Counted from the first letter of the stretch, positions 35,589-61,471 are shown. The stretch is 64,000 nt of DNA from an uncultured Syntrophaceae bacterium (GCA_964492965.1 CAZBME010000001.1:210705-274704), one strand, 5' to 3'. The notes: generated from the letters alone by a model not told the origin. Program-made: numbers and translations.

Positions 35589-35662
35589 ATTTCTCTCACC
35601 TTTCATTTGATTGATCATTGTTTATTATTCTATACCGTAATCAACGCTTCCCCCTGGACTGA

Positions 35663-36660: not shown

Positions 36661-36856
36661 GCGGCTGCTTGCATGAATCTTGATAATCGCAACACGGAAA
36701 ATTAATCATATATTTAAAGGCTATACATCCGGAAGGCAGATATTTTTCATTTTCCGATGACGAGTATAATATTCAATCATGAACCTTTTTTATAATCTAA
36801 CTTGACTTTGAATCCGTATTATTGTATCCTTTAGATACATAGGAGATTGTGGAAGT

Positions 36857-39440: not shown

Positions 39441-40043
39441 TATCGACCGACCCTTTGCGGCCATTTCTGACCATGATTTGTTTTGGGGGCTTTATTCGGT
39501 TCAGCCCCGGGAAGAAACGATGGCATCAAGGCCGCAAAAAATATTGTCCCGATCTGACATTGAACCACAGACACCACAGTTGTGTAGTAACGATACAATC
39601 TTATCTCAGGATGCCTGTCTCGCCCTTAACCTCACCACACCTGGATTAAATGCATGAAATAGTATTCGATGCAATCGGCTATACGAAGCATGAGACAAAA
39701 ACGCCTTCGATTCAGATACCATTTGTTACTTAAAGATACATTTCAGATCGCATCGAGCCTTGCATTTTAATTTGACACATCTCCCGGTACTTGTACGTCT
39801 TCATAAATAATATCTTAAATCATTAGCTTAGGACATGCTAACGGGCAATGCGGCAGGCACCGGGATTGCCTGGCATGCTTTGTGTAATCTCCCCTCATAT
39901 TCTAGAAATTCCCCAGGGAAGCTTGCGTCATTCCCTGTTTTAAAGGTTTTAGAGTGATCAGCCTTAAATCCGCATGGGAGAGCAGGCATAAAGGGTTGAA
40001 CCTGTAGTGGTGCATAATCCCCTTGATCCGGGAGACCGGTTTT

Positions 40044-40140: not shown

Positions 40141-40280
40141 ACGCCGCATCAGAGAAGGGAAGGCAAGGGCGAAATGGAGATAGATCCCGCCGCCTATTGC
40201 CTGCCGAGAAACCGTGGCCCCATAATAAAGTGCAGGAACAGCGATTATTTAAAATTTTTGATAACCGAAGGAGGGTTGGT

Positions 40281-41672: not shown

Positions 41673-41715
41673 TAAATCTACATGATCATTGCTATACTTT
41701 AAGGAGGAAAAAAGG

Positions 41716-43059: not shown

Positions 43060-43133
43060 TGCCTGTCAAGCCTGAGTATTCGACAATTAACTGCGATGTT
43101 CTGCAAATTTCTACATAGGGAGGGGTTTTATTT

Positions 43134-44651: not shown

Positions 44652-44671
44652 TAAGAGGAAAGAGACGAGCA

Positions 44672-46150: not shown

Positions 46151-46160
46151 AAGGAGATTT

Positions 46161-46949
46161 ATGATGCATTACACCACCATTCTGGTTGAAAAAAAATCCG
46201 ATCTGAAGATTGCCGTTATTACCCTGAACCGCCCGGATGTCCGAAATGCCATCAACGGCGCCATGCGGGATGATCTGTATCGGGCCATTGCGGAACTTGA
46301 GGCTGACGAAGATGTCCGGGCCGTCATCCTGACTGGCGGACCGAAGGTTTTTGCCGCCGGAGCCGATATCGCAGCCATGGTGAATAACACGGCCATGGAT
46401 ATGTTCGGCGGCGGCGCCGCCCTGTGGGACATTACCTTTAAAATGGAGGAGTCAAAGAAACCATTTATTGCTGCTATTTCCGGATTCTGCCTTGGCGGCG
46501 GCTGCGAACTGGCCATGGGCTGCGATATCCGGATCGCCTCGGAAAACGCACAGTTTGGCCAGCCGGAAATCAATATCGGGATTATGCCGGGAGCCGGCGG
46601 CACGGTGCGCCTGACACGGTTGGTCGGCATCGGAAAGGCAAAGGAGCTTTGTCTCACGGGAAGAATTGTCCCGGCATCGGAGGCCCTGTCGATAGGCCTG
46701 ATAAACAAGGTGGTCATGGAAGACACCCTGATGGAAGAAGCTGTTGCCATGGCGAAGATGATCACCCGGCACAGCCCTGTGGCGGTCAGTCTGACCAAGT
46801 ATTCCGTGCAGAATGCGGCAGAGACGGACCTTCATACCGGTAAATCCATCGAGCGTTCCTGTTTCTCCCTGGCCTTTGCCAGCGAAGACCAGACGGAAGG
46901 CATGAAGGCGTTTTTGGAAAAGAGAAAACCCAATTACCAGGGCAAGTAG
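46161..46949 (+). CDS. enoyl-CoA hydratase/isomerase (crotonase family)
   Basis: Motifs ITLNRPDVRNA, LTGGPKVFAAGADI and GFCLGGGCELAMGCDIRIA are present. The ATG at 46161 follows AAGGAG. Confidence 0.92.
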   Translation: MMHYTTILVEKKSDLKIAVITLNRPDVRNAINGAMRDDLYRAIAELEADEDVRAVILTGGPKVFAAGADIAAMVNNTAMDMFGGGAALWDITFKMEESKKPFIAAISGFCLGGGCELAMGCDIRIASENAQFGQPEINIGIMPGAGGTVRLTRLVGIGKAKELCLTGRIVPASEALSIGLINKVVMEDTLMEEAVAMAKMITRHSPVAVSLTKYSVQNAAETDLHTGKSIERSCFSLAFASEDQTEGMKAFLEKRKPNYQGK

Positions 46950-47024
46950 GAAACATCCCGGCAGAAGCATCCTGTTATTTTAGCGGCTACTATAAGTGAA
47001 GGGCAGACGTTTGGTATTACTTTG

Positions 47025-47993
47025 ATGAAAGCTGAAGAGCATATCACGATTGTCGAGGTATCACCCCGCGACGGGCTTCCGGCCGTATGCGCAGGAGTAT
47101 CAACAGCCGACAAGATCATGTATATAGACGCTCTTATCAATGCCGGACTAACACAAATCGAGGTTGCGGCCTTCACACACCCTCGGCTTATCCCGGAAAA
47201 TGCCGATGCCGAAAAAGTCGTTTCCGGTATTAGGAAAAAAGCGGGTGTCACGACCATCGGATTGGTTCCCAATGAAATCGGTTGCCGCAGGGCTTTAGTG
47301 ACAGAGATTGATGAAATATTAACGATCATCGCAACAACTGATATTTTCAACCAATTCAATACTGGGAAAACAAGAAGGCAATCCCTTTACAAAGTGATTC
47401 CCTCGATTTTCGAAGCGGCGGCAGCGGAGGGGAAAAAGTCGAGAACCTATCTCATGACCGCATTCGGATGCCCTTATACAGGGAAAATCCCTTGCGAGGA
47501 GATCATACAACTTTTCTTAAGATTATCTTGTATGGGTGCTAAAGAGGTTACTCTGCTTGATTCAACGGGAATGGCCAATCCAAGGCAGGTGAAGGAACTC
47601 GTAAGGCAAGTCATGGATTTGAAGACAGGAACCAGCCTGGCCGTTCATTTCCACAACACGAAAGGCACGGCTTTGACAAACTGTGTAGCTGCCTATGAGG
47701 CCGGTGCCCGGACTTTTTATTCTTCGGTCGGCGGTTTGAGCGGTACACCATCCGGAGCCATGGAATTGGTATTCGGATACTGGAACGTCCCGACGGAAGA
47801 TATTGTTCATCTCTTCGAAGAGATGGGAATCCATACAGGGATAAATATCGAACATCTGCTCGAATGCGTCAAGATGGCGGAATCGCTTGCAGGCAAAACC
47901 TTGCCGGGCCATCTCCTGAGGGCAGGACCCAATTCTCGGCTGCTCAAACCTCCCGATCCCACTACACTCATAAAAGACCGTATACTTCAGTAG
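47025..47993 (+). CDS. HMG-CoA-lyase-like DRE-TIM metallolyase, divergent paralog 2
   Basis: IVEVSPRDGLPA, AVHFHNTKGTAL and SVGGLSGTPSG are present. By eye it is roughly 55-60% identical to paralog 1. Confidence 0.85.
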   Translation: MKAEEHITIVEVSPRDGLPAVCAGVSTADKIMYIDALINAGLTQIEVAAFTHPRLIPENADAEKVVSGIRKKAGVTTIGLVPNEIGCRRALVTEIDEILTIIATTDIFNQFNTGKTRRQSLYKVIPSIFEAAAAEGKKSRTYLMTAFGCPYTGKIPCEEIIQLFLRLSCMGAKEVTLLDSTGMANPRQVKELVRQVMDLKTGTSLAVHFHNTKGTALTNCVAAYEAGARTFYSSVGGLSGTPSGAMELVFGYWNVPTEDIVHLFEEMGIHTGINIEHLLECVKMAESLAGKTLPGHLLRAGPNSRLLKPPDPTTLIKDRILQ

Positions 47994-48033
47994 GAAGGCG
48001 AATCGGCAACATCAGCCGTGTTGAATATAAAAA

Positions 48034-48066
48034 ACGGGGGGGATGCCATACCGTTCACCCCCCCGT
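48034..48066. terminator. bidirectional terminator hairpin between convergent operons
   Basis: ACGGGGGGG-(15 nt)-CCCCCCCGT forms a 9-bp G/C stem, flanked by an A-run upstream and TCTCAATT downstream. Confidence 0.65.
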
Positions 48067-48084
48067 CTCAATTAGATATGGTTA

Positions 48085-49542
48085 TTATTCTTTTATCCCG
48101 GCAATCTTCTTGGCGATCTTTTTCTTGTGCTCCAGGTTCCCCTGGCGGGCGATCATGATTCGCTGGGCCTGGGGCGATCCGGCGCCGTGCATGGATTCGG
48201 TCCGGTAGCCGACAGCCGCCGTTCCCAGGGTCAGGTTCTCCACGAGCCTTAAAATACGGCATCTTTCTTCCGGCGTCACATCGGCGGCACCCTTCAAATA
48301 TTTCTCGAGGACTTTGCCGATTTCCGGATGGCGGAAATCCTTTTCCGAGGCCATAGTCACCATGAGGCCACCGGCAATGTCTTCGGCTAAACGGCAGATC
48401 TCGTAAGGGAATCGGGTCACATTCTGTTTGCAGACGTTGGCCAGCAGCAGGTCGATCAGGTACGTACCCGAAGCCGTTTTGTGACCTTCCGCCGAACAGG
48501 CGATGCCGCAGGAATAAAGGGTCTCATTCAGGTGGGTCATTTCGATGAGTTTGTCCTTGACGTGAGAGGCCTTGGCTGCGCCGTTGTAGTCGGCCGCCAA
48601 AGCCGCCGCGCCGATCAATACGTCGCCCACACCGGCCTTGCATCCTCCGTAGCTCTGGCGATGATATCCGGCAAACCGCTCCACCAAAAGACCGCTGAAC
48701 TCGTATTCCCCGCACATAAGGACATTCTCCCAGGGGATGAAAAGATTATCGAACACCATGAGGGCTTCATGACCGCCGAACTGGGCGTTTCCCACATCGA
48801 TGTCGCTTCCTTCCAGCTTCCGTGTGTCGCAGGACTGGCGTCCATAGATGTAGAAGATCCCTTCGGCATCCGCCGGCGCCACGAAAGAAACGGCATAGTC
48901 GGCATCATCCTTTCCCATGGCAATGGTCGGCATTGCGAGAATCCAATGGGAATTGACCGCTCCCGTCTGGTGGGCCTTTGCGCCGCGAACTACGATACCC
49001 TTATCGTTTTTCTCCACGACATGGACAAACATATCAGGATCCGCCTGCTTGCTGGGGGCCAGGTTACGGTCCCCTTTCGTGTCCGTCATGGCACCATCCA
49101 CGGTGAGATCCTCTTCCTGGATCATGAGCAAAAACTTTTTAAAGCGCTCATGATAGGTCGTGCCGAGTTTCTGGTCCATTTCGAAGGTGACGCTGTCCAC
49201 GGCATTGATGGCGTCCATCCCGACGCACCGCTGAAAGCAGGATCCTGTCTTTTGCCCCAGAAGCCGCTGCATCTTGACCTTTCTGACCAAGTCTTCCGTG
49301 CTCTGATGGAGATGACAGAACCGGTTGATCTTCTTGCCCGACAAATGGGAGGTAGCCGTCATCAGGTCCTCATGCTGGGGATCCTGGGCCGAGGCGTAGG
49401 TCATTTTTACGGAATTCATCGATGGCCTGATGATGGGATGGTCCACGGGATTCTTGACCAGTTCTCCCATCATGTAAATCTTGAAATTCATCTTGCGCAA
49501 ACTCTCTTCATACTGCTCAGGCGTCTTCAGTGCCATATCCAT
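48085..49542 (-). CDS. abfD: 4-hydroxybutyryl-CoA dehydratase / vinylacetyl-CoA delta-isomerase family protein
   Basis: Length and N-terminus fit AbfD/HpaB-fold proteins. GSCFQRCVGMD carries the CxxxC pair used for the [4Fe-4S] cluster in AbfD. Confidence 0.85.
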   Translation of the reverse strand: MDMALKTPEQYEESLRKMNFKIYMMGELVKNPVDHPIIRPSMNSVKMTYASAQDPQHEDLMTATSHLSGKKINRFCHLHQSTEDLVRKVKMQRLLGQKTGSCFQRCVGMDAINAVDSVTFEMDQKLGTTYHERFKKFLLMIQEEDLTVDGAMTDTKGDRNLAPSKQADPDMFVHVVEKNDKGIVVRGAKAHQTGAVNSHWILAMPTIAMGKDDADYAVSFVAPADAEGIFYIYGRQSCDTRKLEGSDIDVGNAQFGGHEALMVFDNLFIPWENVLMCGEYEFSGLLVERFAGYHRQSYGGCKAGVGDVLIGAAALAADYNGAAKASHVKDKLIEMTHLNETLYSCGIACSAEGHKTASGTYLIDLLLANVCKQNVTRFPYEICRLAEDIAGGLMVTMASEKDFRHPEIGKVLEKYLKGAADVTPEERCRILRLVENLTLGTAAVGYRTESMHGAGSPQAQRIMIARQGNLEHKKKIAKKIAGIKE

Positions 49543-49662
49543 TTCCTCCTTGAAGCGCGGCTTTTTTGTTGGATCATTCCTTAATATGATCAGATTCCGA
49601 TAAATGTCAACTGCTGCAAATGTTATAAATGATCTTTATATTAAATCCCGAGTCGCAACCTG

Positions 49663-50799
49663 TCAGCTCAGGATATGATTGGAAATCACCACCCGCTGGA
49701 TCTGATTGGTGCCCTCATAGATCTGCATGACCTTGGCATCGCGCATGCACATTTCCACGCCGTATTCCCTGAGGTACCCGTAACCCCCGAGGATCTGCAC
49801 AGCGTTGTTCGTCACCCGCATGGCCATATCCGCGGCAAAGCATTTGGCATAAGAGGCCATATAGTTGAAGGGCATATTGTTCATGGCAAGCCAGCAGGCC
49901 TTGTAGGTTAAGAGTCTTGCGGCCTCGATCTCCATGGCCATATCGGCCATCATGAACCGCAGGGCCTGGAGATTGGAAATCGGATGCCCGAAGGCCGTCC
50001 TTTCTTTTGAGTACTTGACGGCCAGTTCAAAGGCCCGAACGGCAATGCCGATGGCCTCCGCAGCCACGGAAGGCCTGGAAAGATCGAGGGCCTTCATGCA
50101 GATGCCAAAGCCCTGCCCTTCCTCGCCCAGACGATTCTCCACGGGGACACGCACATCCTCAAAGTTCACCTGCCGTGTATCCGAGGTCCGAATCCCCATC
50201 TTTTTCTCCTCCGGACCGACGGAAATGCCCGGGGTGTCCCGATCCACAATGAATCCCACAATACCCTTGTAGCGCAGTTTCTTGTCTGTGGTGGCAAATA
50301 CCGTATAGATATCGGCCACACCGCCATTCGTGATGAACTGCTTGCTGCCGTTGAGAATATAAGAGTCGCCATCGCGGCGGGCCGTCATGGCCAGTCCCGC
50401 CACATCGGAGCCTGCTCCCGGCTCGGTCAGGCAAAACGCCCCCAGTTTTCCTTCGTTGAGGACATCAAAATAGTGTTTTTTCTGGGCCTCATTCCCACCG
50501 ACCACGACCGGCTCAGGGGAAAGGAGTGTGCTCGCCGCCATCGTGGCGCCCACGCCGGCGCCGCCGTAGCAAAGCTCTTCCGTCACGATGATCTGGCCCA
50601 GCATATCAATACCGGGACCGCCGAACTCCTCCGGCACACCAGCCGTCAGGAGTCCTACTTCGTGCATTTTTTTGATAACCGGCCAGGGAAATTCTTCCTT
50701 GTCGTCATACTCGAGGATCACAGGAATAATCTCCTGTTCCGCAAATTTGCGGGCCATTTTTCTTAACGCTTCATGTTCTTCTGTTAATTGAAAGTCCAT
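49663..50799 (-). CDS. acyl-CoA dehydrogenase (butyryl-CoA dehydrogenase-like)
   Basis: Motifs LTEPGAGSDV, FITNGG and the C-terminal IYEGTNQIQRVVISNHIL are present. Confidence 0.92.
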   Translation of the reverse strand: MDFQLTEEHEALRKMARKFAEQEIIPVILEYDDKEEFPWPVIKKMHEVGLLTAGVPEEFGGPGIDMLGQIIVTEELCYGGAGVGATMAASTLLSPEPVVVGGNEAQKKHYFDVLNEGKLGAFCLTEPGAGSDVAGLAMTARRDGDSYILNGSKQFITNGGVADIYTVFATTDKKLRYKGIVGFIVDRDTPGISVGPEEKKMGIRTSDTRQVNFEDVRVPVENRLGEEGQGFGICMKALDLSRPSVAAEAIGIAVRAFELAVKYSKERTAFGHPISNLQALRFMMADMAMEIEAARLLTYKACWLAMNNMPFNYMASYAKCFAADMAMRVTNNAVQILGGYGYLREYGVEMCMRDAKVMQIYEGTNQIQRVVISNHILS

Positions 50800-50827
50800 A
50801 TATTCTTCACGCTCCAGTCATTGCTAT

Positions 50828-52009
50828 TTAAATGGATTCCACAATAAATGCATGCGCCGGGCCGCCGCTGGCGCACAGGGAGGCGCAGCCGTATTTCACG
50901 CCTCGGCGCTTCATCTCGTTGATCATCGTGATGATGAGCCGGGCGCCCGTGGCCCCGACGGGATGCCCCAGGCCGATTCCCGACCCGACGGCATTCAGGC
51001 GGTCCAGGCTGATCTTCAATTCGCGGTTGACACCCAGAACCTGCGCCGCAAAAGCCTCATTGAATTCCCAGTAATCAACCTGATCCTGCTTCAGACCGGC
51101 AAATTTCAAGGCGTTGCGGACGGCGGGCACGACGCCCATGCCCATGATCCGGGGTTCCACAGAACCGGGAGCCGAGGCAACCACCCTGGCGATAGGTTTG
51201 ATACCCATTTTCCGGGCCGTCTCCGCAGCCATCATAATCATTGCCGAACCTGCATCGTTTAATCCGGAGGCATTCCCCGCCGTGACAGTGCCGTCTTTCT
51301 TGAATGCCGGTTTCAGCTTTGCCAGACCCTCCATCGTCGTCGCGGCAACCGGGTGCTCATCCGTATCAAAAACTGCCGGGCCTTTCTTCGTCTTGATCTC
51401 AACCGGGACAATTTCATCCTTGAACAAGCCTGCCTTGATGGCTTCGCAGGCCCGTAAATTGCTCATCATGGCAAATTCGTCCTGCTCCTCCCTGGTAATG
51501 CCATACTGTTCCGCTATATTGTCGGCCGTGATGCCCATGTGATAACCCAGCAGGTCATCAACCAACCCCCCGATCATGAGGCTGTCCTGAACCTGCTCGG
51601 CATTGCCCAGACGATAACCCTTGCGGGCGCCCATCAATAAATAGGGTGCGTTGCTCATACTCTCAACCCCGACCACGGCGCCGACATCAATCTTGCCCAG
51701 CATGATCTCCTGGGACAAAAGTTCCGAGGCGCGCATGGAAGAGGCGCACTGCTGATGAACCGTAAAGGCGAAGGACTCGATGGGCAATTCCGCCCGCATG
51801 GCGATGTGTCTGGCCGTGTTTCCCGGGGCACCCGCCTGGTTGCACTGTCCGGCGACAACCTCCTTGATCACGCTCTTATCGACACCCGCCTTCTCGATGG
51901 CCCCGTTTAACGCAAAAACGCCCAACTGGACAGGGCTGAAACCTGAAAGCGACCCCATATAGTTGCCAATCGCTGTTCTCGCTCCGCTGATAATAACGAC
52001 TTCTCTCAT
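50828..52009 (-). CDS. acetyl-CoA acetyltransferase (thiolase II-like)
   Basis: Motifs VHQQCASSMRA (nucleophilic Cys), NAVGSGIGLGHPVGATGAR and LCASGGPAHA are present. Confidence 0.92.
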   Translation of the reverse strand: MREVVIISGARTAIGNYMGSLSGFSPVQLGVFALNGAIEKAGVDKSVIKEVVAGQCNQAGAPGNTARHIAMRAELPIESFAFTVHQQCASSMRASELLSQEIMLGKIDVGAVVGVESMSNAPYLLMGARKGYRLGNAEQVQDSLMIGGLVDDLLGYHMGITADNIAEQYGITREEQDEFAMMSNLRACEAIKAGLFKDEIVPVEIKTKKGPAVFDTDEHPVAATTMEGLAKLKPAFKKDGTVTAGNASGLNDAGSAMIMMAAETARKMGIKPIARVVASAPGSVEPRIMGMGVVPAVRNALKFAGLKQDQVDYWEFNEAFAAQVLGVNRELKISLDRLNAVGSGIGLGHPVGATGARLIITMINEMKRRGVKYGCASLCASGGPAHAFIVESI

Positions 52010-52131
52010 AATGCTTCCTTTCTATTCGGTCATTTCTTTAAAATGGATTTTTTCCAGGCAAAGAATCACTCATTAATCTCCGCACAAAGGACAAACACCC
52101 CCATTAGGCACAATGTCCCCCGAATATGAAT

Positions 52132-52147
52132 TACAATTGTTGTGCCA
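52132..52147 (-). promoter_or_regulatory. sigma-54-type promoter with a non-canonical -12 (thiolase-ACAD-abfD operon)
   Basis: The minus strand reads TTGGCAC-AACAA-TTGTA. The -24 is perfect and the register correct, but the -12 is TTGT rather than TTGC. It lies about 125 nt upstream of the thiolase start and shares its form with the site at 55470-55483. Confidence 0.55.
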
Positions 52148-52241
52148 ATGACGAAACGTTACGTTCTTTTGGATTAAACTACCACATATCAAAGGGATGC
52201 GTTATTCAAGAATGTTGGTGAACAAGGTAAACTGAAATATT

Positions 52242-52290
52242 TGATTCAGCAATGGATCAGTTATCATAGGAATGATCCATTGTTGAATCA
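52242..52290. promoter_or_regulatory. tandem 18-bp palindromes (putative enhancer/UAS for the CBS-PAS EBP), sites A and B
   Basis: Site A is TGATTCAGCAATGGATCA (52242-52259) and site B is TGATCCATTGTTGAATCA (52273-52290). Their centres are 31 bp apart, about 95-145 bp upstream of the promoter at 52132-52147. Confidence 0.65.
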
Positions 52291-52321
52291 GTGATCTCCG
52301 GCGGTGTAAAAACCGAATGGG

Positions 52322-53965
52322 CTATTTATAAATCTTTCGCAACTCAATCTTGTTGATTTTACCGACGCTGGTTTTGGGCAAGGCAGCGGCAATCTCTACC
52401 CGGTCAGGAACGCCATACTTGGGAATTTTGCCGCCCTCAGCCTGTTTGAGAAGAAACTGCCGAAGTTCCTCCCCTGTGGTTTTATCCTTGAATTCAGGTT
52501 TCAGTACGGCAATCATGAAGGGCCGCTCGCCCCATTTGGCATCGGAGATGCCGATGGCAGCCGCCTCAAGGATGGCCTCGTGCTGGCTGAGCAGGTTTTC
52601 CAGATCCAGCGAAGAAATCCATTCGCCGCCCGTTTTGATGACATCCTTGATCCGGTCCGTAACCTGAAGATAACCCTCACGATCAATATAGCCGATATCT
52701 CCCGTGTGGAGCCAACCGTCCACCCAAAGCTCCCTCGCCCGTTCCTCATCGTGATGGTAACCCGCGGTCAGCCAGGGCGCACGGACACAGACCTCCCCGG
52801 TGGCAACGCCATCATGGGGAACCTCGTTGCCGGCGGGATCAAACAGGCGCATATAGACAAGAGGAGCCGGGAGGCCCGTCTTGATCAAGGTATCGATCTG
52901 CTTCTCCTTCGGCTCCCCCAGCATCGAGGGCTTCAGATTGGATACCGTCAGAAGGGGGCAGGTTTCAGACATGCCGTAACCGGCGAAAATATTGATCCCC
53001 AGTTCCATGGCCGCCAGGGCCAGTCCCTTTGTAAGGCGGGCCCCGCCAATGACGACTTTCCAGAAGGAGAGGTCCAGCCCCTTGGGGGCGGCACTGATGA
53101 CCATCTGTACAATAGTTGGGACGCAATGGGAGTAAGTAACCCGCTCTTTCAAAATCAGTTTCAGGAGCAGTTCCGGTTCATAACGTCCGGGATAGACCTG
53201 CTTCATCCCGAGCAGGGTCGCGGCGTAGGGATAACCCCAGGCATGAACGTGAAACATGGGTGTCAGAGGCATATAGACGTCCGTTGACCGGAAGCGGCCT
53301 ACAGATTCGTAAGCACCTGTTGCGGTATGCTGAACAAGGCATTGCAGGACCAGTTGCCGATGGGAAAAATAGACGCCCTTGGGCAGGCCCGTGGTTCCCG
53401 TCGTATAGAAGGTTGTGGCCCGGGTGTTTTCATCAAAATCGGGAAAGTCGTAGGAGGACGACGCTCCGGCCAGCATGGCCTCGTATTCCCCGTCCAAAGG
53501 TATCTTCGATGCGGGCGGCAAGTCGTCATCCGTAATGAGAATCACCTTCCCGACCGTCGTGAGTTTATCCCAGACAGCCTCCAGCAGAGGCAGGAAGTCG
53601 ACATGAATCAAAACGACCTTGTCTTCGGCGTGATTCATCGTATAGAGGATCTGCTCCGGAGAAAGCCGCCAGTTTTGCGTATGGAGAACCGCCCCCATCA
53701 TGGGAATGGCAAAAAAGCACTCCAGATAACGGTGGCTGTCATAGTCAAAGACGCAGATCGTATCGCCCCTGCGGACCCCCAGCTTTTCGAGGCCGGCGGC
53801 CAGCCTGTTGATCCGCTCAAAAAGGGTGATGTATGAATACCGGAGCTTGTCCCGGTAGATGATCTCCTGATTGGGCGCCAGAAAGCGGGGCGTTTCGAGG
53901 ATGTGTTTGATCAGTAATTGATAGTTATAGCTTTCTCCCGGTTCATATACCTTTTCGTCTTTCAT
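52322..53965 (-). CDS. AMP-forming acyl-CoA synthetase
   Basis: Motifs YTTGTTGLPKGVYFSH, GYGMSE, WLHTGDIG and PKTSVGKINK are present. Confidence 0.92.
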   Translation of the reverse strand: MKDEKVYEPGESYNYQLLIKHILETPRFLAPNQEIIYRDKLRYSYITLFERINRLAAGLEKLGVRRGDTICVFDYDSHRYLECFFAIPMMGAVLHTQNWRLSPEQILYTMNHAEDKVVLIHVDFLPLLEAVWDKLTTVGKVILITDDDLPPASKIPLDGEYEAMLAGASSSYDFPDFDENTRATTFYTTGTTGLPKGVYFSHRQLVLQCLVQHTATGAYESVGRFRSTDVYMPLTPMFHVHAWGYPYAATLLGMKQVYPGRYEPELLLKLILKERVTYSHCVPTIVQMVISAAPKGLDLSFWKVVIGGARLTKGLALAAMELGINIFAGYGMSETCPLLTVSNLKPSMLGEPKEKQIDTLIKTGLPAPLVYMRLFDPAGNEVPHDGVATGEVCVRAPWLTAGYHHDEERARELWVDGWLHTGDIGYIDREGYLQVTDRIKDVIKTGGEWISSLDLENLLSQHEAILEAAAIGISDAKWGERPFMIAVLKPEFKDKTTGEELRQFLLKQAEGGKIPKYGVPDRVEIAAALPKTSVGKINKIELRKIYK

Positions 53966-53986
53966 CTCCCCCCCATTTTATATAAG

Positions 53987-54015
53987 GCAGGGGCAGGTTT
54001 CAATCCTGCCCCTGC
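53987..54015 (-). other. perfect 11-bp intercistronic hairpin between the SBP and acyl-CoA synthetase genes
   Basis: GCAGGGGCAGG-(7 nt)-CCTGCCCCTGC has no U-tract. It may act as a partial terminator or mRNA stabiliser. Confidence 0.5.
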
Positions 54016-54044
54016 AAATATCTGTTTACCCGTATGCCTCGCCC

Positions 54045-55280
54045 TTACTCCGCTTTCTTCCAAGTCAGCGGACTTGTCGATTTCGTGATTTTTTTCACTT
54101 GGTTGAATTCCTGCTGTGTTTTGGGCCACCAGGCATAGACAGCCGCCGGCGTCGGTTGCCCGCCCTTCACCATCTGGGCATAGGGGAATATTTCCATCCG
54201 ACCGTCGCTCGTTATCCCATGCGCTTCCGTCGGGAATCGATCACCGAGCATCGGGAAGGCCTTGGAAAAAGACGCCCGGATCGCCGCTATATTATTGACG
54301 GCGCCTGAAGCGGCTATAGCCCTTGCCAGAGCCTGCATCCCCATATAATTCTGTATCGCCTCCATGTTACAGATTCGTTTGTAGGTCGTTGTATATCTCT
54401 TGTTGAAGGCGGCATTGGCAGCAAAAGGAATGGAATCCACCGCGGCCACGCTGATCGTATTTTCCAGGAGTTTCTTATCTTTGAGGATACTGGCAACATA
54501 ATCAGCCCGTGCCTGATCGATGAAGATAAAACCGCCCTTAAAGCCCATGGAGCGGGCCTGCTCAACGACAAGGGCCGTCGTGGCCGACGGGCCTCCGATA
54601 AACATGACATCGGGTTTTGTTGCCAGAGCGGCTGTTAGCTGGCTGGAAAAATCGGTTTCCGTATAGTAATTGGCAGGCTTGTCAATGGTAATCGTGCCGC
54701 CAAGTTTTTCCCAGTAAGTTTTGAAGTAGGCGCGATTTTCATCGCCATAGGCGCCGAGGGTGACAAGCATGGCGGCTTTGCGCCAGCCCTGCTGCCATGC
54801 CATGTCGGCGAAAGAGCTATTGTAAACAGTAAAGGGCGGGGGTATCAAAACGGCCAGTTTGTTTCCCAACTGTGTGGCCTTGGGTGTGCTGGTATAGCCC
54901 ATCAGCAGGAACTCATTCCCCTTTTCTTCATTGATCTTCATGAGCGGCGCAATGCAATTGAAGACAGGACTGAAGACCGCCACGGCCCCATTGGAACGAA
55001 AGCGCCTGGCGTTATTGATCGCCTGGGTCGGATCAACCCGGTCATCCAGTTTTTCCAGCTTGAAAAGATAACTCTTCCCCTTGACCTTGATGCCACCGGC
55101 GGCATTCATGTCTTTGACCGCCATTTCAATACCGTTGAGACAATCCTGACCATACTCTGCCGCCGGTCCACTCAAGGGCCCCGTGTATCCGATCAGAATT
55201 TCTTCAGCGCCACCAACCGCTGCCCAGGCAAACACCACACCGACGATTATTAAACAGATAAAACTTTTCAAACCCTTCAT
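54045..55280 (-). CDS. periplasmic substrate-binding protein, type-I PBP (LivJ/K-like, Peripla_BP_6); no cognate ABC permease or ATPase genes nearby
   Basis: A signal peptide is followed by the family-typical N-terminus ILIGYTGPLSGPAAEYGQDCLNGIEMAVKDMNAAGGI. Confidence 0.88.
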   Translation of the reverse strand: MKGLKSFICLIIVGVVFAWAAVGGAEEILIGYTGPLSGPAAEYGQDCLNGIEMAVKDMNAAGGIKVKGKSYLFKLEKLDDRVDPTQAINNARRFRSNGAVAVFSPVFNCIAPLMKINEEKGNEFLLMGYTSTPKATQLGNKLAVLIPPPFTVYNSSFADMAWQQGWRKAAMLVTLGAYGDENRAYFKTYWEKLGGTITIDKPANYYTETDFSSQLTAALATKPDVMFIGGPSATTALVVEQARSMGFKGGFIFIDQARADYVASILKDKKLLENTISVAAVDSIPFAANAAFNKRYTTTYKRICNMEAIQNYMGMQALARAIAASGAVNNIAAIRASFSKAFPMLGDRFPTEAHGITSDGRMEIFPYAQMVKGGQPTPAAVYAWWPKTQQEFNQVKKITKSTSPLTWKKAE

Positions 55281-55469
55281 CTCTTTACTTCCTCCTCTCT
55301 CAGTCTGCTTTTTGAGCTTTCCCCCCTCTTTTGCTGAAGGAAAGGATGAAACTAAACCAGATACGTTAATGTTTTATGCCGGCAACTTGAACTGATACCT
55401 GCTCGATCACCTCCCTCTCATGATTTTGATATAAATCTAACGATCCCCGCTTATATGTTTATTTTCGTT

Positions 55470-55483
55470 CAATTGTCGTGCCA
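55470..55483 (-). promoter_or_regulatory. sigma-54-type promoter with a non-canonical -12 (SBP / acyl-CoA synthetase operon)
   Basis: The minus strand reads GTGGCAC-GACAA-TTGAA. It has the same TGGCAC-RACAA-TTGW form and register as 52132-52147, and lies about 190 nt upstream of the SBP start. Confidence 0.5.
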
Positions 55484-55589
55484 CGAAAAGACAACATATT
55501 ATGTAATAATTATTGCCAAATGTTATCAATATCATTGACGTCAATTTATTTTTCCCAAAACAAGAATAGGGCCGGGGGAATGGCTTTTT

Positions 55590-55638
55590 TGATTCATATA
55601 TGAATCAAAACCAACATTAGTGATCCATATTAGAATCA
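55590..55638. promoter_or_regulatory. tandem 18-bp palindromes (putative enhancer/UAS), sites C and D
   Basis: Site C is TGATTCATATATGAATCA (55590-55607, a perfect palindrome) and site D is TGATCCATATTAGAATCA (55621-55638). Their centres are 31 bp apart, about 105-155 bp upstream of the promoter at 55470-55483. Confidence 0.65.
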
Positions 55639-55688
55639 ATGTTGTTTTATGAGCCTATCCGGTGGGAATCCCCTTGATCAGAATCGTT

Positions 55689-57884
55689 TCAAACAACATC
55701 AGCCTTGATTTTGTGCTTCGAGGCTTTCCGAATGAAGGTCGGTTGGCTGATGCCGATTGCGGCGGCGGCTTTTCTCGTTGTGCCGAAGCGGATCAGGGCA
55801 TTGCGGATCATCTCTTTTTCGAGTTCCGCCACAGCCGCTCCCAATTTAAATCCGGACAACGCTTTCACCCCTTCATCGGGCTTCCTGGCATCTTCCGATT
55901 GATGGCCCGGCAAATCGATATTGCTGATGATATCCTCGGGACAGGTGATCATGTTTCTTTCAATCACATTCTGTAATTCCCGGACGTTACCGGGCCAATC
56001 GTAAGACATGAGCAGGTTGATGGCCCTCTCGTCAAAGCGTTTGTTGATCTTATATTTTTTATTGTACAATGTTGTAAAATGGGTGACAAAATTGGGGACT
56101 TCCTCTCTGCGGTCCCGCAAGGGAGGAATATTGACCGGCACGACATTCAGCCTGTAAAAAAGGTCCTGCCTGAATTCATTTTTGGCCGCCATGTCTGCCA
56201 GATTCTTGTTTGAAGCGGCAATGATGCGGACATCGACCTTGAGCGGCTTGTTCCCGCCCAACCGGGTGATCACTTTCTGCTGAATGGTCCGCAATAGTTT
56301 CGATTGCAGATGGAGGGGCATTTCACCGATTTCATCGAGGAAGATCGTCCCGCCGTTGGCCAGCTCAAAAATGCCGGCCCTCCCTTTTTTATGGGCTCCC
56401 GTAAAGGCCCCCGCTTCGTACCCGAACAACTCCGATTCCAGTAAATTATCGGGGATGGCGGCGCAATTGATGGGGATCATGGGTTTATCACGTCTCAGGC
56501 TGTTTTCGTGGAGCATTTCCGCCACAATTTCCTTGCCGACTCCCGATTCACCGAGAATGAGAATCGTCGTATCCACTTTGCTAAGACGCATGACCAATTC
56601 GACGAGCTCTTTGGATTTCTTTGATTTAGCAATATATTTGCCGGATATCTTAATCCTGTTGAGTTGCTCCTTGTAATGATCGCTCAGGCTCTCCGCCTTC
56701 TCCAGTTGATTCTTCAACTCATTGAGTTCCGTAATATCCCTGGCGTTATGAACGACGCGGAAAACATTGCCGCTGCCGTCCATAATGGGATTGCTGGTCA
56801 CGAGGATTGTTTTCCCCGATCGAACTTCCTGGGCAATGGTGACGGGCTTCCCCTCCAGCATCGCCTGGAGGGGGATGCTCTGCTTAAATATCCCTCGGAC
56901 CACTAGGTCTTCCATTTTATAGCCCAGAAGCTCATTCTTCTGAATTCCCGTGATGCGGGTGAAGGCGTCATTGACACGCAGAACCCGACCCTGATTGTCA
57001 GTCAGATAGATGCCGTCAAACGACGATTCGATGATTGTGACCAGTTCTTCTTTCAATTCTTTGGTGGTGGTCAATTCCTCCGAGATGTGCTCAAGGTCGG
57101 AGATATCCTGAAAAACAGCCACGGCGCCGATGATTTTATCCTTATGCCTCAGGGGACTTTTATTGGTGACGAGAATTTTATCCTTAAAAATCAATTTCTG
57201 GCCGAAATCGGATCTGCCCGTATGGACGATATCATCCAGCTTGGCATCGGGCAGAATATCAGACAGCAATCGATTGAGGGCCGCTTTGCGTGCAATGGAT
57301 AATATCTTTTCCGCCGCATCATTCATGAGCTTGATGTGACCATTTAAATCTATGGTGATAATGCCGTTATAGGCGGAATTGATAACGGTGTGCAGTTCTT
57401 CCTCAAAGTTCAGGATGGAGCTGAAGTACGCCCGGATCGTATCCGAAAGGGTAACAATGCCCACGACACGACCGTCTTCGACGACAGGCAGGCTCCCGAC
57501 ATTGATGGTTATCAGCTTCGAGATATCTTCGTTAGGCTTCGTCACCAGGGGATCCGTCTTCATGATATCCCCGATATTCTTCTCGATATCCCCGCTATGA
57601 TTGATTTCCCGCAAGGCCATGGTTTTGGTGATCAGACCGACGATTTTCCCCTCGTCGCTTACAATCGGGACACCGTCAATCTTATTCTCAATGATAATCC
57701 TGATGGCGTCTTTTAATGTCGCGTCGCTCTTCAGGACCAGGGGATGCGGACGCATGAAATCACTGACCTTGGCGTTCATATTCAGGCCATCCGTTTCCCT
57801 CAACAATTGCTGTACTTCGTTGAGCAACGGATCCTCATCCGGATAATTCGTCACAACGGCACCTCCCGTACGATGATGCTTCAC
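55689..57884 (-). CDS. sigma-54-dependent transcriptional activator with a CBS pair, two PAS domains, AAA+ and Fis HTH
   Basis: The N-terminal CBS repeats read VSDFMRPHPLVLKSDATLKDAIRIIIENKIDGVPIV... and IGDIMKTDPLV...LPVVEDGRVVGIVT. AAA+ motifs are GESGVGKE and ESELFGYEAGAFTGA. The HTH reads RKAAAAIGISQPTFIRKASKH. The true start may be an internal Met, for example near 57779. Confidence 0.9.
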   Translation of the reverse strand: MKHHRTGGAVVTNYPDEDPLLNEVQQLLRETDGLNMNAKVSDFMRPHPLVLKSDATLKDAIRIIIENKIDGVPIVSDEGKIVGLITKTMALREINHSGDIEKNIGDIMKTDPLVTKPNEDISKLITINVGSLPVVEDGRVVGIVTLSDTIRAYFSSILNFEEELHTVINSAYNGIITIDLNGHIKLMNDAAEKILSIARKAALNRLLSDILPDAKLDDIVHTGRSDFGQKLIFKDKILVTNKSPLRHKDKIIGAVAVFQDISDLEHISEELTTTKELKEELVTIIESSFDGIYLTDNQGRVLRVNDAFTRITGIQKNELLGYKMEDLVVRGIFKQSIPLQAMLEGKPVTIAQEVRSGKTILVTSNPIMDGSGNVFRVVHNARDITELNELKNQLEKAESLSDHYKEQLNRIKISGKYIAKSKKSKELVELVMRLSKVDTTILILGESGVGKEIVAEMLHENSLRRDKPMIPINCAAIPDNLLESELFGYEAGAFTGAHKKGRAGIFELANGGTIFLDEIGEMPLHLQSKLLRTIQQKVITRLGGNKPLKVDVRIIAASNKNLADMAAKNEFRQDLFYRLNVVPVNIPPLRDRREEVPNFVTHFTTLYNKKYKINKRFDERAINLLMSYDWPGNVRELQNVIERNMITCPEDIISNIDLPGHQSEDARKPDEGVKALSGFKLGAAVAELEKEMIRNALIRFGTTRKAAAAIGISQPTFIRKASKHKIKADVV

Positions 57885-58045
57885 GATTTCGATTGATTTT
57901 ATTTGTATATTATCTTAAATTTAGATTCAGTAACAGCATGGTTTATAGATCATGCCATATACCTGACCTTTACAACCTGCCTGCTCCAGATGCAACCAGT
58001 CTTTTAACGCATGATTTGATGGACCCGCTTGGGGGGATATGAGTC

Positions 58046-60061
58046 ATGAATCAGTCTGAAATGGCCAAAGATGATTTGGCATCGGCAAATGAAATCCTAT
58101 GCCTGCGTGTTTCAGAACTGGAGAAGAGCCTTGCCGAAAAGCAACAAACAACAGAAGAGCTCAAAGCCCGGATTAAAACGATGGCCGCTGCTTCCCGTGC
58201 GGCCGACCTCGCCCTGTGGGAATGGGATATCGGTTCAGACAGATTGACATGGACGGATAATGTAGATGCATTGATCGGCTATGAGAGAGGCCACATCGAA
58301 CATACCATCCAGGCCTGGAACGAACTGATTCACGCCGACGACCGTGCCATGGTCTGGGAACATCTGGAAAAGCACCTCAACGAGGGTTCACCCTACGATG
58401 TACACTACCGCATAAAAAGAAAAGACGGCCGCTATCATTGGTGGCGTGATACAGGCCAATGCCTGAGGGACAAAAGCGGCAAGGCATACCTCATGTCAGG
58501 GGCCTGCATGGATATTTCAAAACAAAAACACGCCGAAGATGATCTCAGAGAGCAGATCCGGTTTCTCCAGGTGCTCATCGATTCCATCCCGGCGCCTGTT
58601 TTCTTCAAGGATACGGAAGGCCGCTATCTCGGTTGCAACAAAGCATTGGAAGATATGCTCGGCGTACCGAGGGACCGTATCCTTGGAAAAACCATGTACG
58701 ATTTCGCGCCGAAATTTCTTGCCGACCTGCATCTGCGCTCAGACCTGGATCTGTTCAGCCAAGGGGGGTTTCAGGCCTATGAGAGTATTGCGTTCAACGA
58801 GAAGGGAGAAAAACGACAGATAGTCGTGACGAAGGCCACGTTCGACGACCGGCATGGCAAACTCGCGGGATTGATCGGAACCATCTTTGATATGACGGAC
58901 ACGAAGCGATTGGAAGCCAGGGTCCGTCAAACCCAGAAGTTAGAAGCCATCGGCACGCTCGCCGGAGGAATTGCGCACGATTTCAATAATATGCTGGGAG
59001 CCATTTCGGGCTATACAGAGCTGTCTCTTGAGCAAGTGCCTGCCGACAGCAAGGTGAAGGGCTATCTCATGCAAATTTTCAAGGCCACACGCCGGGCCGT
59101 CGATCTTGTATCTCAAATCCTTGACTTCAGCCGTCAGAAGGAACAGGAGCGCCGTCCCCTGAGGGTCGGGCCCCTGGTTAAAGAGGCCACGAAACTTCTC
59201 CGGGCAACGATTCCTAAAACCATTGATATCCGGACAAATATCACAACCGAGGTGGACACGGTTCTGGCAGATCCTTCTCAGATTCACCAGCTCCTGACGA
59301 ATCTCTGCACAAACGCTTATCAGGCCATGAAAAGCGATACGGGTCTCCTGGACATAACGTTGTCCAATGTGTCCATCAACACCGACGCCAAGGCTCCTTC
59401 ATCCCTCTGGAAGCCCGGTCCTTATCTCAAACTGTCTGTCCGCGACACAGGACAAGGTATTGAGCCGGACCATATCGAGCGGATATTTGATCCATTTTTC
59501 ACGACCCAAGGCCTTGGTGAAGCACCAGGCCTTGGCCTGTCCGTGGTCCACGGGATTGTTAAAAATCACGGCGGCGAGATAACCGTAGAAAGTCAAACCG
59601 GCAAGGGAACGGAAATAAGCGTTTATCTGCCTCTTGTCGAAGATCAGCAGGACAGGAAGACACCCTCGTCGGATAGCCTTATCATTGGAGGCTCGGAACA
59701 CATCCTTGTGGTCGATGATGAGGAAATGCTTGCGAAGATGACCAAGGCCCTGCTGGAAGGCCTGGGGTACAAGGTGACGGCAAAAACGGACAGCATTGAG
59801 GCGCTTGAGTCATTCCAGAGCAATCCGCAAGGTTACGATCTGGTCATTACCGATCATGCCATGCCCATCATGACGGGTCTGTCGCTGGCCGCTGCAATCA
59901 TGAACATCAGGCCGGAAATCCCGGTTTTTCTCTGCACGGGGTTCAGCAGCGCCGTCGATCCTGAAATAGCCCAAAAGGCAGGCATCCGTGAGTTCGTTAT
60001 GAAACCTGTCACAAGGCGACACATCGCAGAACTGATCCGGAAGGCCCTGGGAAATGGGTAA
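58046..60061 (+). CDS. hybrid sensor histidine kinase (coiled coil, two PAS, HisKA, HATPase, receiver)
   Basis: The H-box is GGIAHDFNNMLGAISGYTEL. ATPase boxes are DTGQGIEPDHIERIFDPFFTT and GLGLSVVHGIVKNHGG. The C-terminal receiver reads ILVVDDEE...DLVITDHAMP. Confidence 0.93.
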   Translation: MNQSEMAKDDLASANEILCLRVSELEKSLAEKQQTTEELKARIKTMAAASRAADLALWEWDIGSDRLTWTDNVDALIGYERGHIEHTIQAWNELIHADDRAMVWEHLEKHLNEGSPYDVHYRIKRKDGRYHWWRDTGQCLRDKSGKAYLMSGACMDISKQKHAEDDLREQIRFLQVLIDSIPAPVFFKDTEGRYLGCNKALEDMLGVPRDRILGKTMYDFAPKFLADLHLRSDLDLFSQGGFQAYESIAFNEKGEKRQIVVTKATFDDRHGKLAGLIGTIFDMTDTKRLEARVRQTQKLEAIGTLAGGIAHDFNNMLGAISGYTELSLEQVPADSKVKGYLMQIFKATRRAVDLVSQILDFSRQKEQERRPLRVGPLVKEATKLLRATIPKTIDIRTNITTEVDTVLADPSQIHQLLTNLCTNAYQAMKSDTGLLDITLSNVSINTDAKAPSSLWKPGPYLKLSVRDTGQGIEPDHIERIFDPFFTTQGLGEAPGLGLSVVHGIVKNHGGEITVESQTGKGTEISVYLPLVEDQQDRKTPSSDSLIIGGSEHILVVDDEEMLAKMTKALLEGLGYKVTAKTDSIEALESFQSNPQGYDLVITDHAMPIMTGLSLAAAIMNIRPEIPVFLCTGFSSAVDPEIAQKAGIREFVMKPVTRRHIAELIRKALGNG

Positions 60062-60079
60062 CGATTGGGTGTAAAACAT

Positions 60080-61471
60080 ATGGCAGACATACTGATTATT
60101 GACGACGACAAGATCATGTCCGATATGCTCGTGGATATCGTAAACGGCATGGGACACACAGCCCATACGGCATTCACCCTTGACGACGCTGCCAAAACAG
60201 CCTCCAGGACGCCTTTCAGCGTGATCCTCCTCGATGTGAATCTCCCGGACGGCAACGGTCTGGAGAAGCTTCAGACGTTCCGTGAACTTCCCGACGCTCC
60301 GGAGGTCATTATCATCACGGCTTACGGGGACCGTAGCGGAGCGGAGGTCGCCTTGAACAGCGGCGCCTGGGACTACATTTACAAAACCGCCTCCATCGCC
60401 AAGATCAGGCTTTCCCTGCTTCGGGCCATCCAATACGCCGAAACCAGAAAAGAAAGAGTATCCGTGCTGCCTGAGCCGGACCTGGAGGGCATCATCGGCC
60501 ACCATGACTACCTGTCTGCCTGCATCAGCCGCCTGACACAGGCGGCTCAGAGCGACGGGAATATCTTGATCAGCGGAGAAACGGGCACGGGAAAAGAACT
60601 CTTCGCCCAGGCCATACACAGGAACAGCCGTCGCGCAGGCCGGAGCTTCGTCACCGTTGACTGTGCCGCCCTTCCCCCGACACTTGCGGAAAGCCTGTTG
60701 TTCGGACATGAAAAAGGCGCCTTCACCGGTGCCGACAAACCCATGGACGGAATGATTATGCAGGCGGATGGGGGAACCCTTTTCCTTGACGAGATTGGCG
60801 ACCTGAATGCATCTATTCAGAAGACCTTCCTGCGTGTCCTCCAGGAACACCGTTTCCGGCCTCTCGGAGCCAAACAGGAAATCAAGAGCGATTTCCGGGT
60901 CGTCGCCGCGACCAACAGAAACCTTGAAGAAATGGCCCGTAAGGGAGATTTCAGACTGGACCTGCTGCACCGCATCCGCGCCTTGGTCATTGAACTGCCG
61001 CCGCTACGAAAACATCCGTCAGCGATTACGGAGCTTGTCCTTTATTACATGACGAAACTTTGCAGGCGTTACGGCATATCGCATAAAAATGCCTCTCCCG
61101 AATTTCTGGAAGCCCTCGTCGGCTACGGTTGGCCAGGTAATGTCCGCGAACTCATCAATGCGATGGAATGGGCCATTGCGGCAGCGCTCCAGGAACAAAC
61201 CCTTTATCCCAAACACCTTCCTACGCAAATCAGACTTTATACGGCCGATGACGAAAACAAACAGGCAAGCCAGGTGAAAGCCCGGGATACTATGTCAACA
61301 TTAAAATTTGTCAGGGAATCGGCCGTTGCGGCCGCAGAATCTTCCTATCTCAAGGATTTGATTCACATGACGAAAGGGAGCATCTCCGAAGCTTGCAGGA
61401 TCTCCGGCTTATCGCGCCCGCAACTTTACGCTCAACTGAGAAAGCACCATCTCACGAGATCGAGCTTCTGA
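60080..61471 (+). CDS. NtrC-family sigma-54-dependent response regulator (receiver, AAA+, HTH)
   Basis: The receiver reads MADILIIDDD...VILLDVNLPDGNG. AAA+ motifs are GETGTGKE and LLFGHEKGAFTGA. A C-terminal HTH is present. The 386-aa minus-strand track ORF over it is antisense noise. Confidence 0.92.
   Translation: MADILIIDDDKIMSDMLVDIVNGMGHTAHTAFTLDDAAKTASRTPFSVILLDVNLPDGNGLEKLQTFRELPDAPEVIIITAYGDRSGAEVALNSGAWDYIYKTASIAKIRLSLLRAIQYAETRKERVSVLPEPDLEGIIGHHDYLSACISRLTQAAQSDGNILISGETGTGKELFAQAIHRNSRRAGRSFVTVDCAALPPTLAESLLFGHEKGAFTGADKPMDGMIMQADGGTLFLDEIGDLNASIQKTFLRVLQEHRFRPLGAKQEIKSDFRVVAATNRNLEEMARKGDFRLDLLHRIRALVIELPPLRKHPSAITELVLYYMTKLCRRYGISHKNASPEFLEALVGYGWPGNVRELINAMEWAIAAALQEQTLYPKHLPTQIRLYTADDENKQASQVKARDTMSTLKFVRESAVAAAESSYLKDLIHMTKGSISEACRISGLSRPQLYAQLRKHHLTRSSF

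Follow-up and report, generated by a model that had tools for sequence, protein, structure and literature searches.

The DNA analysed here, in the following called the window, is a stretch of 64,000 nucleotides from an uncultured Syntrophaceae bacterium (GCA_964492965.1, CAZBME010000001.1:210705-274704). It carries two operons, one beginning with a thiolase gene and the other with a gene for a periplasmic solute-binding protein (SBP). Each operon is preceded by a pair of 18-bp palindromes and by a σ54 promoter-like element (P1 for the thiolase operon, P2 for the SBP operon), and a gene for an enhancer-binding protein (EBP) ends close to the second pair. The most probable interpretation, to which we assign a probability of roughly 0.85, is that of a conventional bacterial enhancer system in which the EBP, bound to the palindromes as paired upstream activating sequences (UAS), activates P1 and P2. 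The locus is a new example of a familiar σ54 system that is useful for the annotation of syntrophs and will not surprise σ54 specialists.

Paired palindromes, promoters and the activator gene

The whole window was scanned for the pattern TGATYCA-N4-TGRATCA with up to two mismatches, and shuffled sequences served as control. A preliminary description of the DNA had proposed such a search for the whole genome; in the window, the scan returned only the four sites already reported there, even when two mismatches were allowed (Table 1). At one mismatch or less, four matches were observed while 0.09 were expected, and none of 100 shuffles reached four. A single mismatch is present in the distal P2 site, TGATCCATATTAGAATCA, whose second half-site opens with A and not with T. 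The proximal P2 site, TGATTCATATATGAATCA, is a perfect palindrome that can be extended to TTTTGATTCATA/TATGAATCAAAA; 17 of its 18 bases are the same as in the proximal sites of two related loci (L083 and L084, see below). Start-to-start spacing is exactly 31 bp in both pairs, and each pair doubles as a larger inverted repeat with arms which are 94% (P1 pair, 18 nt) or 84% (P2 pair) complementary. As expected of a UAS (at least two dyad-symmetric sites approximately 80-250 bp upstream of a -24/-12 element), the P1 sites are located 95-143 bp upstream of the T of TGGCAC, with centres at 103.5 and 134.5 bp, and the P2 sites 107-155 bp upstream, with centres at 115.5 and 146.5 bp. The preliminary description had thus recognised both pairs and their spacing, with coordinates that were about 2 bp off for the first pair. 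The architecture that it called identical is so with respect to the 31-bp spacing but not to the distance between enhancer and promoter (103.5 vs 115.5 bp), the linkers being 91 nt long at P1 and 103 nt at P2.

Both minus-strand promoter-like elements described previously, TGGCAC-AACAA-TTGTA and TGGCAC-GACAA-TTGAA, were found. Exact matches to TGGCAC-N5-TTG occur only three times in the window; the third one, at 17845 (minus strand), has a canonical TTGC, and the two remaining, non-canonical matches each have a UAS pair upstream. The -24 element is an exact TGGCAC at both promoters, and the TGGCA columns are invariant in an alignment of eight sequences. Five nucleotides separate the -24 and -12 elements in P1, P2 and all orthologous promoters. 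Of the -12 element, T and G are present, and the C is replaced by T in P1 and by A in P2. Both promoters have the strand and position expected upstream of their genes, with homologous promoters in 11 loci. Because sister lineages have canonical TTGC at the orthologous positions, P1 and P2 appear to be real promoters by homology, and not chance matches.

Transcription is predicted to start around 52121 from P1 and around 55457 from P2, which would give 5' untranslated regions (UTRs) of about 112 nt to the thiolase start codon and about 177 nt to the SBP start codon. An Rfam scan of positions 47000-58500 at a permissive threshold yielded no family and nothing in either long 5' UTR; two sub-threshold chance matches fell inside the EBP gene. 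No intrinsic terminators were detected on the coding strand in the gaps between the EBP gene and the P2 site pair (UAS2) and between the acyl-CoA synthetase gene and the P1 site pair (UAS1), and terminators were not above the level of shuffled sequences. P1 and P2 share a RACAA spacer which the orthologous promoters lack. A recent duplication of one cassette is nevertheless unsupported, as the two linkers are dissimilar (z = 0.04); P1 and P2 may be either old duplicates or independent recruits.

The EBP comprises 731 amino acids when translated from a GTG codon (721 in another gene call). Pfam domains identified in this protein are Sigma54_activat (PF00158; 1.6e-68), two CBS domains, two PAS domains, and HTH_50 (33.6 bits vs a cut-off of 27). 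The translation contains the Walker A motif GESGVGKE and the GAFTGA motif of AAA+ activators, and the best PDB matches are the AAA+ domains of NtrC, FleQ, ZraR and NtrC1. A helix-turn-helix (HTH) is present at the C-terminus, in which GTTRKAA..GISQPT.(I/V)RKA.K is conserved across the EBP family. The stop codon of the gene and the distal P2 site are separated by 50 bp. Domains and coordinates hence bear out the CBS-CBS-PAS-PAS σ54 activator seen in the preliminary description, and its labels for the products of the target genes, namely thiolase, acyl-CoA dehydrogenase (ACAD), AbfD, SBP and acyl-CoA synthetase, agree with domain and model matches. Proteins encoded in the window cluster with ones labelled Syntrophales and Smithella.

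The closest named model for the EBP is PrdR (NF041552), with 504.5 bits and only residues 275-720 aligned. Since this score is below the curated full-length cut-off of 795, the EBP was rejected as a PrdR equivalog and is predicted to be a member of an unnamed family. General knowledge of CBS pairs makes it plausible that the activator senses an adenylate or CoA-type ligand via these domains, as had been suggested.

Table 1. Coordinates of genes, palindromic sites, promoters and linker in the window.
Feature	Position	Strand	Sequence, basis or remark
EBP, CBS-CBS-PAS-PAS-AAA+-HTH_50	55689-57884	-	Pfam scan, translation
SBP (Peripla_BP_6, LivJ-like), first gene after P2	54045-55280	-	Pfam
Acyl-CoA synthetase (AMP-binding), second gene after P2	52322-53965	-	NF004837, 604.7 bits vs cut-off 476
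Acetyl-CoA C-acyltransferase (thiolase), first gene after P1	50828-52009	-	domain/model matches
Short-chain ACAD (Bcd/AcrC-like)	49663-50799	-	domain/model matches
AbfD homologue (4-hydroxybutyryl-CoA dehydratase/vinylacetyl-CoA isomerase)	48085-49542	-	773 bits to PDB 1U8V, 669 to 6VJR
Proximal UAS, P1	52242-52259	none	TGATTCAGCAATGGATCA; pattern search
Distal UAS, P1	52273-52290	none	TGATCCATTGTTGAATCA; pattern search
Proximal UAS, P2	55590-55607	none	TGATTCATATATGAATCA; pattern search
Distal UAS, P2	55621-55638	none	TGATCCATATTAGAATCA; pattern search, aligns with second site of orthologous loci
Predicted σ54 promoter P1, TGGCAC-AACAA-TTGTA	52147 down to 52132	-	TGGCACAACAATTGTA; -12 base T at 52133; pattern search, position weight matrix (PWM)
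Predicted σ54 promoter P2, TGGCAC-GACAA-TTGAA	55483 down to 55468	-	TGGCACGACAATTGAA; -12 base A at 55469; pattern search, PWM
AT-rich enhancer-promoter linker, P2	55484-55589	none	core compared interval 103 nt, 31% GC

Conservation of sites, distance and gene context beside related activator genes

Related loci were gathered by exact-protein look-ups of the best EBP homologues and by a metagenome scan with an alignment of CBS-PAS N-termini. When a full-length EBP alignment was used as seed for a contig scan, the patterns fell on generic AAA+ motifs (NCAAIPE, WPGNVREL) and only distant EBPs were returned. In the closer relatives the N-terminus of the EBP is approximately 54-72% identical to that of the window EBP. 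Three sites with the same motif were found beside the EBP gene in L081-L089, L093, L094, L098-L100, L102, L110 and L165, spaced by 31 and then by 28-29 bp (32 and 30 bp in L098). Exceptions in this range of identity are L090-L092, L095 and L097, where the motif is degenerate or undetected; the more degenerate form in L090-L092 was recognised by eye and is beyond a scan with three mismatches. In most loci of 54-72% identity the EBP gene is divergent from a beta-oxidation-type operon, the content of which varies (3-hydroxyacyl-CoA dehydrogenase [3HCDH], enoyl-CoA hydratase [ECH], ACAD, acyl-CoA synthetase, AbfD, thiolase and sometimes Peripla_BP_6). The intergenic region of about 340 bp in these relatives contains three palindromes followed by TGGCA(C/T)-N5-TTG on the operon strand. 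The consensus of 34 pooled sites is yGATyyA-wwww-TGAATCA, with the promoter-side half-site being more conserved; the underlying matrix is conditioned on TGATYCA-N4-TGRATCA, the pattern by which the sites had been selected. Columns that do not vary in the multiple alignment fall in the UAS half-sites and in TGGCA...ATTG.

A scan at up to two mismatches detected no pair or larger group of sites around more distant paralogues (54 loci, L111-L164). EBP homologues at approximately 46% identity are associated with a related motif, TGATACA-N4-TGTATCA, and the S. wolfei homologue P0117 is 42% identical to the window EBP. As the motif is present beside most close relatives and absent around distant paralogues, it appears to track EBP orthology, which is the standard footprinting criterion by which a UAS is attributed to its EBP (PMC6615313, PMC4641369). 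The recurrence of motif, spacing and fixed-distance promoter in relatives thus lends good support to the earlier proposal that the four palindromes are the predicted enhancer of the adjacent EBP and define a small σ54 regulon. In one relative, L089, the EBP frame (6001-7812) stops after 603 codons in the AAA+ lid region, owing to a frameshift or an assembly error; the three UAS sites and a TGGCAT-GTAAA-TTGAT promoter are intact despite the broken frame.

The distance between enhancer and promoter is conserved as well. At P2 of the window, 115.5 bp separate the centre of the proximal site from the T of TGGCAC, and the same value was obtained for every one of the 11 listed loci whose promoter is recognisable (L081-L088, L093, L094 and L102). 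The linker measures exactly 103 nt at P2, L081, L083, L084 and L085. Pairwise alignments of these 103-nt linkers gave z values of 0.6-1.4, the same as for shuffled sequences, i.e., no sequence similarity is detectable. Linker GC content is 31-34% as compared to 51% for the window. Conservation of length alone would be expected from a looping or face-of-helix constraint; if the UAS and the -24/-12 element had nothing to do with each other, it would be difficult to account for. In more distant relatives the distance is different (95.5, 103.5, 109.5 and 118.5 bp), so the constraint is local and not universal. The UAS2-P2 linker also contains a 12-bp sequence, ATTGACGTCAAT at 55534-55545, which forms a perfect palindrome and precedes the T of TGGCAC by about 56 bp. 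Orthologous loci do not share this palindrome, L084 and L085 having a lone TTGATTCAT half-site in its stead; it could be bound by a second factor or be due to chance.

In the window the EBP and SBP genes are arranged in tandem, whereas the order is divergent in the EBP relatives. Orthologues of the synthetase with 79-92% identity in other Syntrophales (L168-L173) are unlinked to the EBP and adjoin PAS-PAS-GerE (LuxR-type) regulators or other genes; the SBP-synthetase pair as such is found in L170 and L171. Upstream of the synthetase or SBP gene in these orthologous loci neither a UAS cluster nor a σ54 promoter was detected. In L171, whose synthetase is 92% identical, a near-consensus TTGACA-17-TATACT precedes the SBP gene, and homology to the window downstream of the synthetase gene ends just short of UAS1. 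Because the orthologues elsewhere lack the enhancer, the SBP-synthetase pair appears to have been brought under the EBP enhancer-promoter module in the lineage of the window. The same catabolic genes thus seem to be tied to different regulator classes in sister lineages.

Proposed mechanism, the -12 cytosine and alternative explanations

In the mechanism that we favour, EBP dimers would bind the 18-bp palindromes yGATyyA-wwww-TGAATCA, and the spacing of 31 bp, about three helical turns, would place both dimers on the same face of the DNA. A signal perceived by the CBS-PAS module, for which a metabolite of short-chain acyl-CoA or adenylate metabolism is the likeliest candidate, would license assembly of the AAA+ ring of the bound EBP. 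The ring would then loop over approximately 100 bp of AT-rich, length-constrained DNA to σ54 RNA polymerase in the closed complex, and ATP hydrolysis would open the promoter at TGGCAC-N5-TTG(T/A). P2 is predicted to drive the SBP and acyl-CoA synthetase genes for uptake and activation, and P1 the thiolase, ACAD and AbfD genes for conversion, of a short-chain acid, for example butyrate, crotonate or 4-hydroxybutyrate. Since no terminator is predicted between the P2 and P1 units, P1 may also boost one long transcript internally. The missing -12 C would be a tolerated, weakening deviation that leaves σ54 dependence unchanged.

With regard to this C, the preliminary description had held that it is normally very highly conserved and that its replacement in both promoters reflects a functional variant, not a chance match. 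The presence of TTGC in sister lineages argues against chance matches, but the C is less inviolate than supposed. Among 125 RegPrecise Desulfovibrionales promoters, which make up a portion of S2 Table of PMC12316311, the G is kept in 124 and the C in 113, while T replaces the C in nine and A in three; hence 12 (9.6%) lack the C. This curated baseline leans to the consensus, such sets being built with PWMs. In an EcoCyc entry of S2 Table, the pspA promoter of E. coli, which is known from experiment, reads TGGCAC-GCAAA-TTGTA, with the -12 pentamer of P1. A 590-kb control, drawn from the surroundings of paralogous EBPs in metagenomes of the same kinds, has C after TGGCA(C/T)-N5-TTG in 38 distinct cases (2.5 expected) and another base in eight (5.5 expected by chance). 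Judged by the curated set, pspA and the 590-kb control, TTGT and TTGA are a known minority form and not a new kind of element.

In the EBP family itself, the C is present in TTGCT (five distinct orthologous promoter sequences) and TCGCA (one), and absent from TTGAA (lineage of L083, L094 and L102), TTGAT (L089), TTGAC (L093), and TTGTA and TTGAA of the window. Five of 11 distinct promoters therefore lack the C as compared to 9.6% in the sampled baseline (binomial 0.002). According to a neighbour-joining tree of EBP N-termini, the C was lost at least three times; one of these losses (L083/L102), recovered from several samples, is nested in a TTGC clade. When corrected for kinship, the count is reduced to about three events in about eight lineages (p ~0.03). 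We favour the reading that the frequent loss of the C in this family, whose promoters retain ATTG and a perfect -24 element, reflects relaxed constraint.

A number of observations weigh against the enhancer model as a whole. The window has two sites per promoter while relatives have three; no third site was seen in the sequence at +28 to +29 bp beyond each distal site of the window, where the terminal part of the EBP gene is found at P2 and that of the synthetase gene at P1. Neither window linker has a match to the E. coli IHF consensus, WATCAANNNNTTR. PWM scores of P1 (11.4) and P2 (10.3) are below the median of 15.8 for curated promoters, on account of the -12 base and the A-rich spacer; they rise to 13.2 and 13.5, respectively, if the -12 position is ignored. 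Finally, L099 (5770-5847) and L100 (5013-5090) contain three well-formed UAS sites (31 and 29 bp apart) next to an EBP orthologue and no recognisable -24/-12 element within 260 bp; either the promoter has diverged strongly or these loci have lost the target operon.

Alternatively, the palindromes could be operators of another, unlinked factor such as a repressor of fatty-acid genes, in which case TGGCAC-N5-TTG would be fortuitous and transcription would start at σ70 promoters. An 18-bp palindrome with TGA/TCA arms is indeed a generic operator shape, the -12 element is imperfect, and a weak σ70-like ATAACA-17-CATAAT (9/12) is present between UAS2 and P2. However, σ70-like hexamers in the region show no excess (five vs 4.0 in shuffles), and the motif follows EBP orthology over many metagenomic loci, always beside the EBP gene. 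Moreover, TGGCA...ATTG is invariant at the fixed 115.5 bp while the intervening DNA has diverged beyond recognition, and the SBP-synthetase orthologues without the EBP are also without motif and -24/-12 element, one of them having the TTGACA-17-TATACT mentioned above. An unlinked factor is thus very improbable. Even less credit can be given to the idea that short palindromes and GG/TTG strings lie together by chance in the AT-rich intergenic DNA. A/T-rich palindromes are commoner at 31-34% GC, but the excess over shuffled sequences, the same 31-bp spacing in both pairs and the conservation of positions in more than 12 independent loci effectively refute this explanation.

A further alternative retains the enhancer and adds selection for loss of the -12 C. 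TTGA or TTGT would weaken the lock at the region I/-12 fork junction, or closed-complex occupancy, and thereby reset basal level or dynamic range of fatty-acid genes in slow-growing syntrophs. The promoters of the CBS-PAS family would then be a selected σ54 sub-class in which the C is repeatedly lost, ATTG and the rigid 103-nt distance are kept, and the effect of a weakened -12 lock on basal expression or kinetics is compensated by the locked enhancer. The excess of non-C promoters over the curated baseline and over the similar 590-kb internal baseline, their multiple origins, and the GC retained by other σ54 candidates of the window (17845, 36659 and 28880) are in line with this idea, as is the role of the -12 region as a regulatory centre that maintains the closed complex (PMC5095919). 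On the other hand, the substituted bases differ (A, T) and sister lineages keep the C, which looks like relaxed constraint; the corrected number of events is small, and the curated baseline is biased to the consensus. Also, pspA with its TTGTA is an ordinary, tightly activator-dependent promoter. We regard both the selected loss and a sub-class defined by it as rather unlikely, and the previous suggestion that the -12 change tunes basal silencing is pure conjecture. The conventional enhancer system with a relaxed -12 position remains the preferred reading.

Related systems and further features of the window

The arrangement resembles glnAp2 of enteric bacteria, where two strong dyad sites for NtrC are located about three helical turns apart and roughly 100-140 bp upstream of the promoter. 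There, bound dimers nucleate an AAA+ oligomer that reaches the σ54 holoenzyme by looping, which is what we predict here. Unlike NtrC, which is phosphorylated as a response regulator and has an HTH of the Fis type, the window EBP is a one-component protein with a CBS-PAS sensor, an HTH_50-type domain and another site sequence. In addition, the -12 element of glnAp2 is canonical, unlike those of P1 and P2. The PspF-controlled pspA promoter (TGGCAC-GCAAA-TTGTA vs TGGCAC-AACAA-TTGTA of P1) shares the -12 deviation, a similar A-rich spacer and an upstream pair of activator sites. PspF, however, has no sensory domain, is controlled by PspA and serves in envelope stress, whereas the window EBP has sensory domains and is linked to catabolism. 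Looping at pspA is assisted by IHF, for which the window linkers have no consensus site. In E. coli, AtoC is a σ54 activator of short-chain fatty-acid catabolism genes including a thiolase gene (atoDAEB); the enhancer there is an inverted repeat located more than 100 bp upstream. The NCBIfam AtoC model matches the AAA+ and HTH part of the window EBP with 296 bits; this is far below the cut-off of 714, and orthology was rejected. AtoC is, unlike the window EBP, the response regulator of the AtoS kinase. PrdR is alike in its PAS-AAA+-HTH part but lacks the CBS pair and controls proline reductase.

The closest resemblance is to CrbR-type regulons (Nie et al. 2019, PMC6615313), which likewise comprise one-component PAS EBPs adjoining their targets, multiple UAS and butyryl-CoA genes, and were delineated by the same comparative-genomics logic. 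Multi-site UAS 100-250 bp upstream are the norm in EBP regulons of Clostridiales, including that of CrbR for crt-hbd-thl-bcd-etfAB (PMC6615313). The motifs of CrbR, PrdR and similar regulators are of the type TGT-N10-12-ACA, whereas that described here is TGAT(T/C)CA-N4-TGAATCA (TGA-N12-TCA). The window EBP family is further distinguished by its N-terminal CBS pair and its occurrence in Syntrophales, with relatives of approximately 50-53% identity in Syntrophomonadaceae, and it is not among the 39 groups of PMC6615313. No description of the motif of this CBS-PAS family was found in the literature searched. For beta-oxidation COGs and COG2368 (AbfD family), regulation by σ54 has been predicted before, mainly in Clostridia (PMC12316311).

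Regulators of beta-oxidation in syntrophs (Smithella/Syntrophales, Syntrophomonadaceae) are essentially uncharacterised. For a widespread EBP family, the locus provides a testable motif, a site geometry and a target set that can be used for regulon prediction in metagenome-assembled genomes and for reporter design. The natural promoter series (TTGC, TTGA, TTGT), with the distance kept and the intervening sequence not, offers a system to study the contributions of the -12 C and of loop geometry. The current understanding of σ54 is not overturned by these data.

Three further σ54 activators are encoded on the plus strand of the window, a PAS-AAA-HTH_8 protein (30851-32941), a short AAA-HTH_8 protein (36857-38260) and an NtrC-type response regulator (60065-61471). 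The gene for the latter follows that of a hybrid histidine kinase (58046-60061), which is divergent from the CBS-PAS EBP gene. EBP density is high, as reported for Thermodesulfobacteriota. An rpoN gene is absent from the window. A second beta-oxidation operon (33136-36709, minus strand; 3HCDH, thiolase, ACAD) is divergent from the EBP gene at 36857. It has no TGATYCA-type sites and hence represents a separate regulon. Its candidate promoter, a canonical σ54 element near 36659 (minus strand; CCTGGTATGGTCTTTGCTC, PWM 16.6), is placed inside the longest open reading frame yet upstream of the start of the 3HCDH domain (residue 59), so the annotated start of this reading frame is probably too early.

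The best σ54 match of the window, GCTGGCACCGTCTTTGCTG (17827-17845, minus strand; PWM 17.8), lies upstream of a gene for a methyl-accepting chemotaxis protein (16103-17695). At 39855-39889 (plus strand), AGGCAC-CGGGA-TTGCC and TGGCAT-GCTTT-GTGTA overlap upstream of a DASS-family transporter/CoA-transferase cluster (40197-47993); the second of these elements scores 13.3, lacks the -12 C and is possibly another non-canonical σ54 promoter of this genome. An unrelated anaerobic catabolic module at 18224-23455 (minus strand) and 13811-14977 (plus strand) includes a glycyl-radical enzyme (PFL-like, 799 amino acids), its radical-SAM activase and a carboxylesterase, with a PocR-sensor/LuxR-type regulator nearby.

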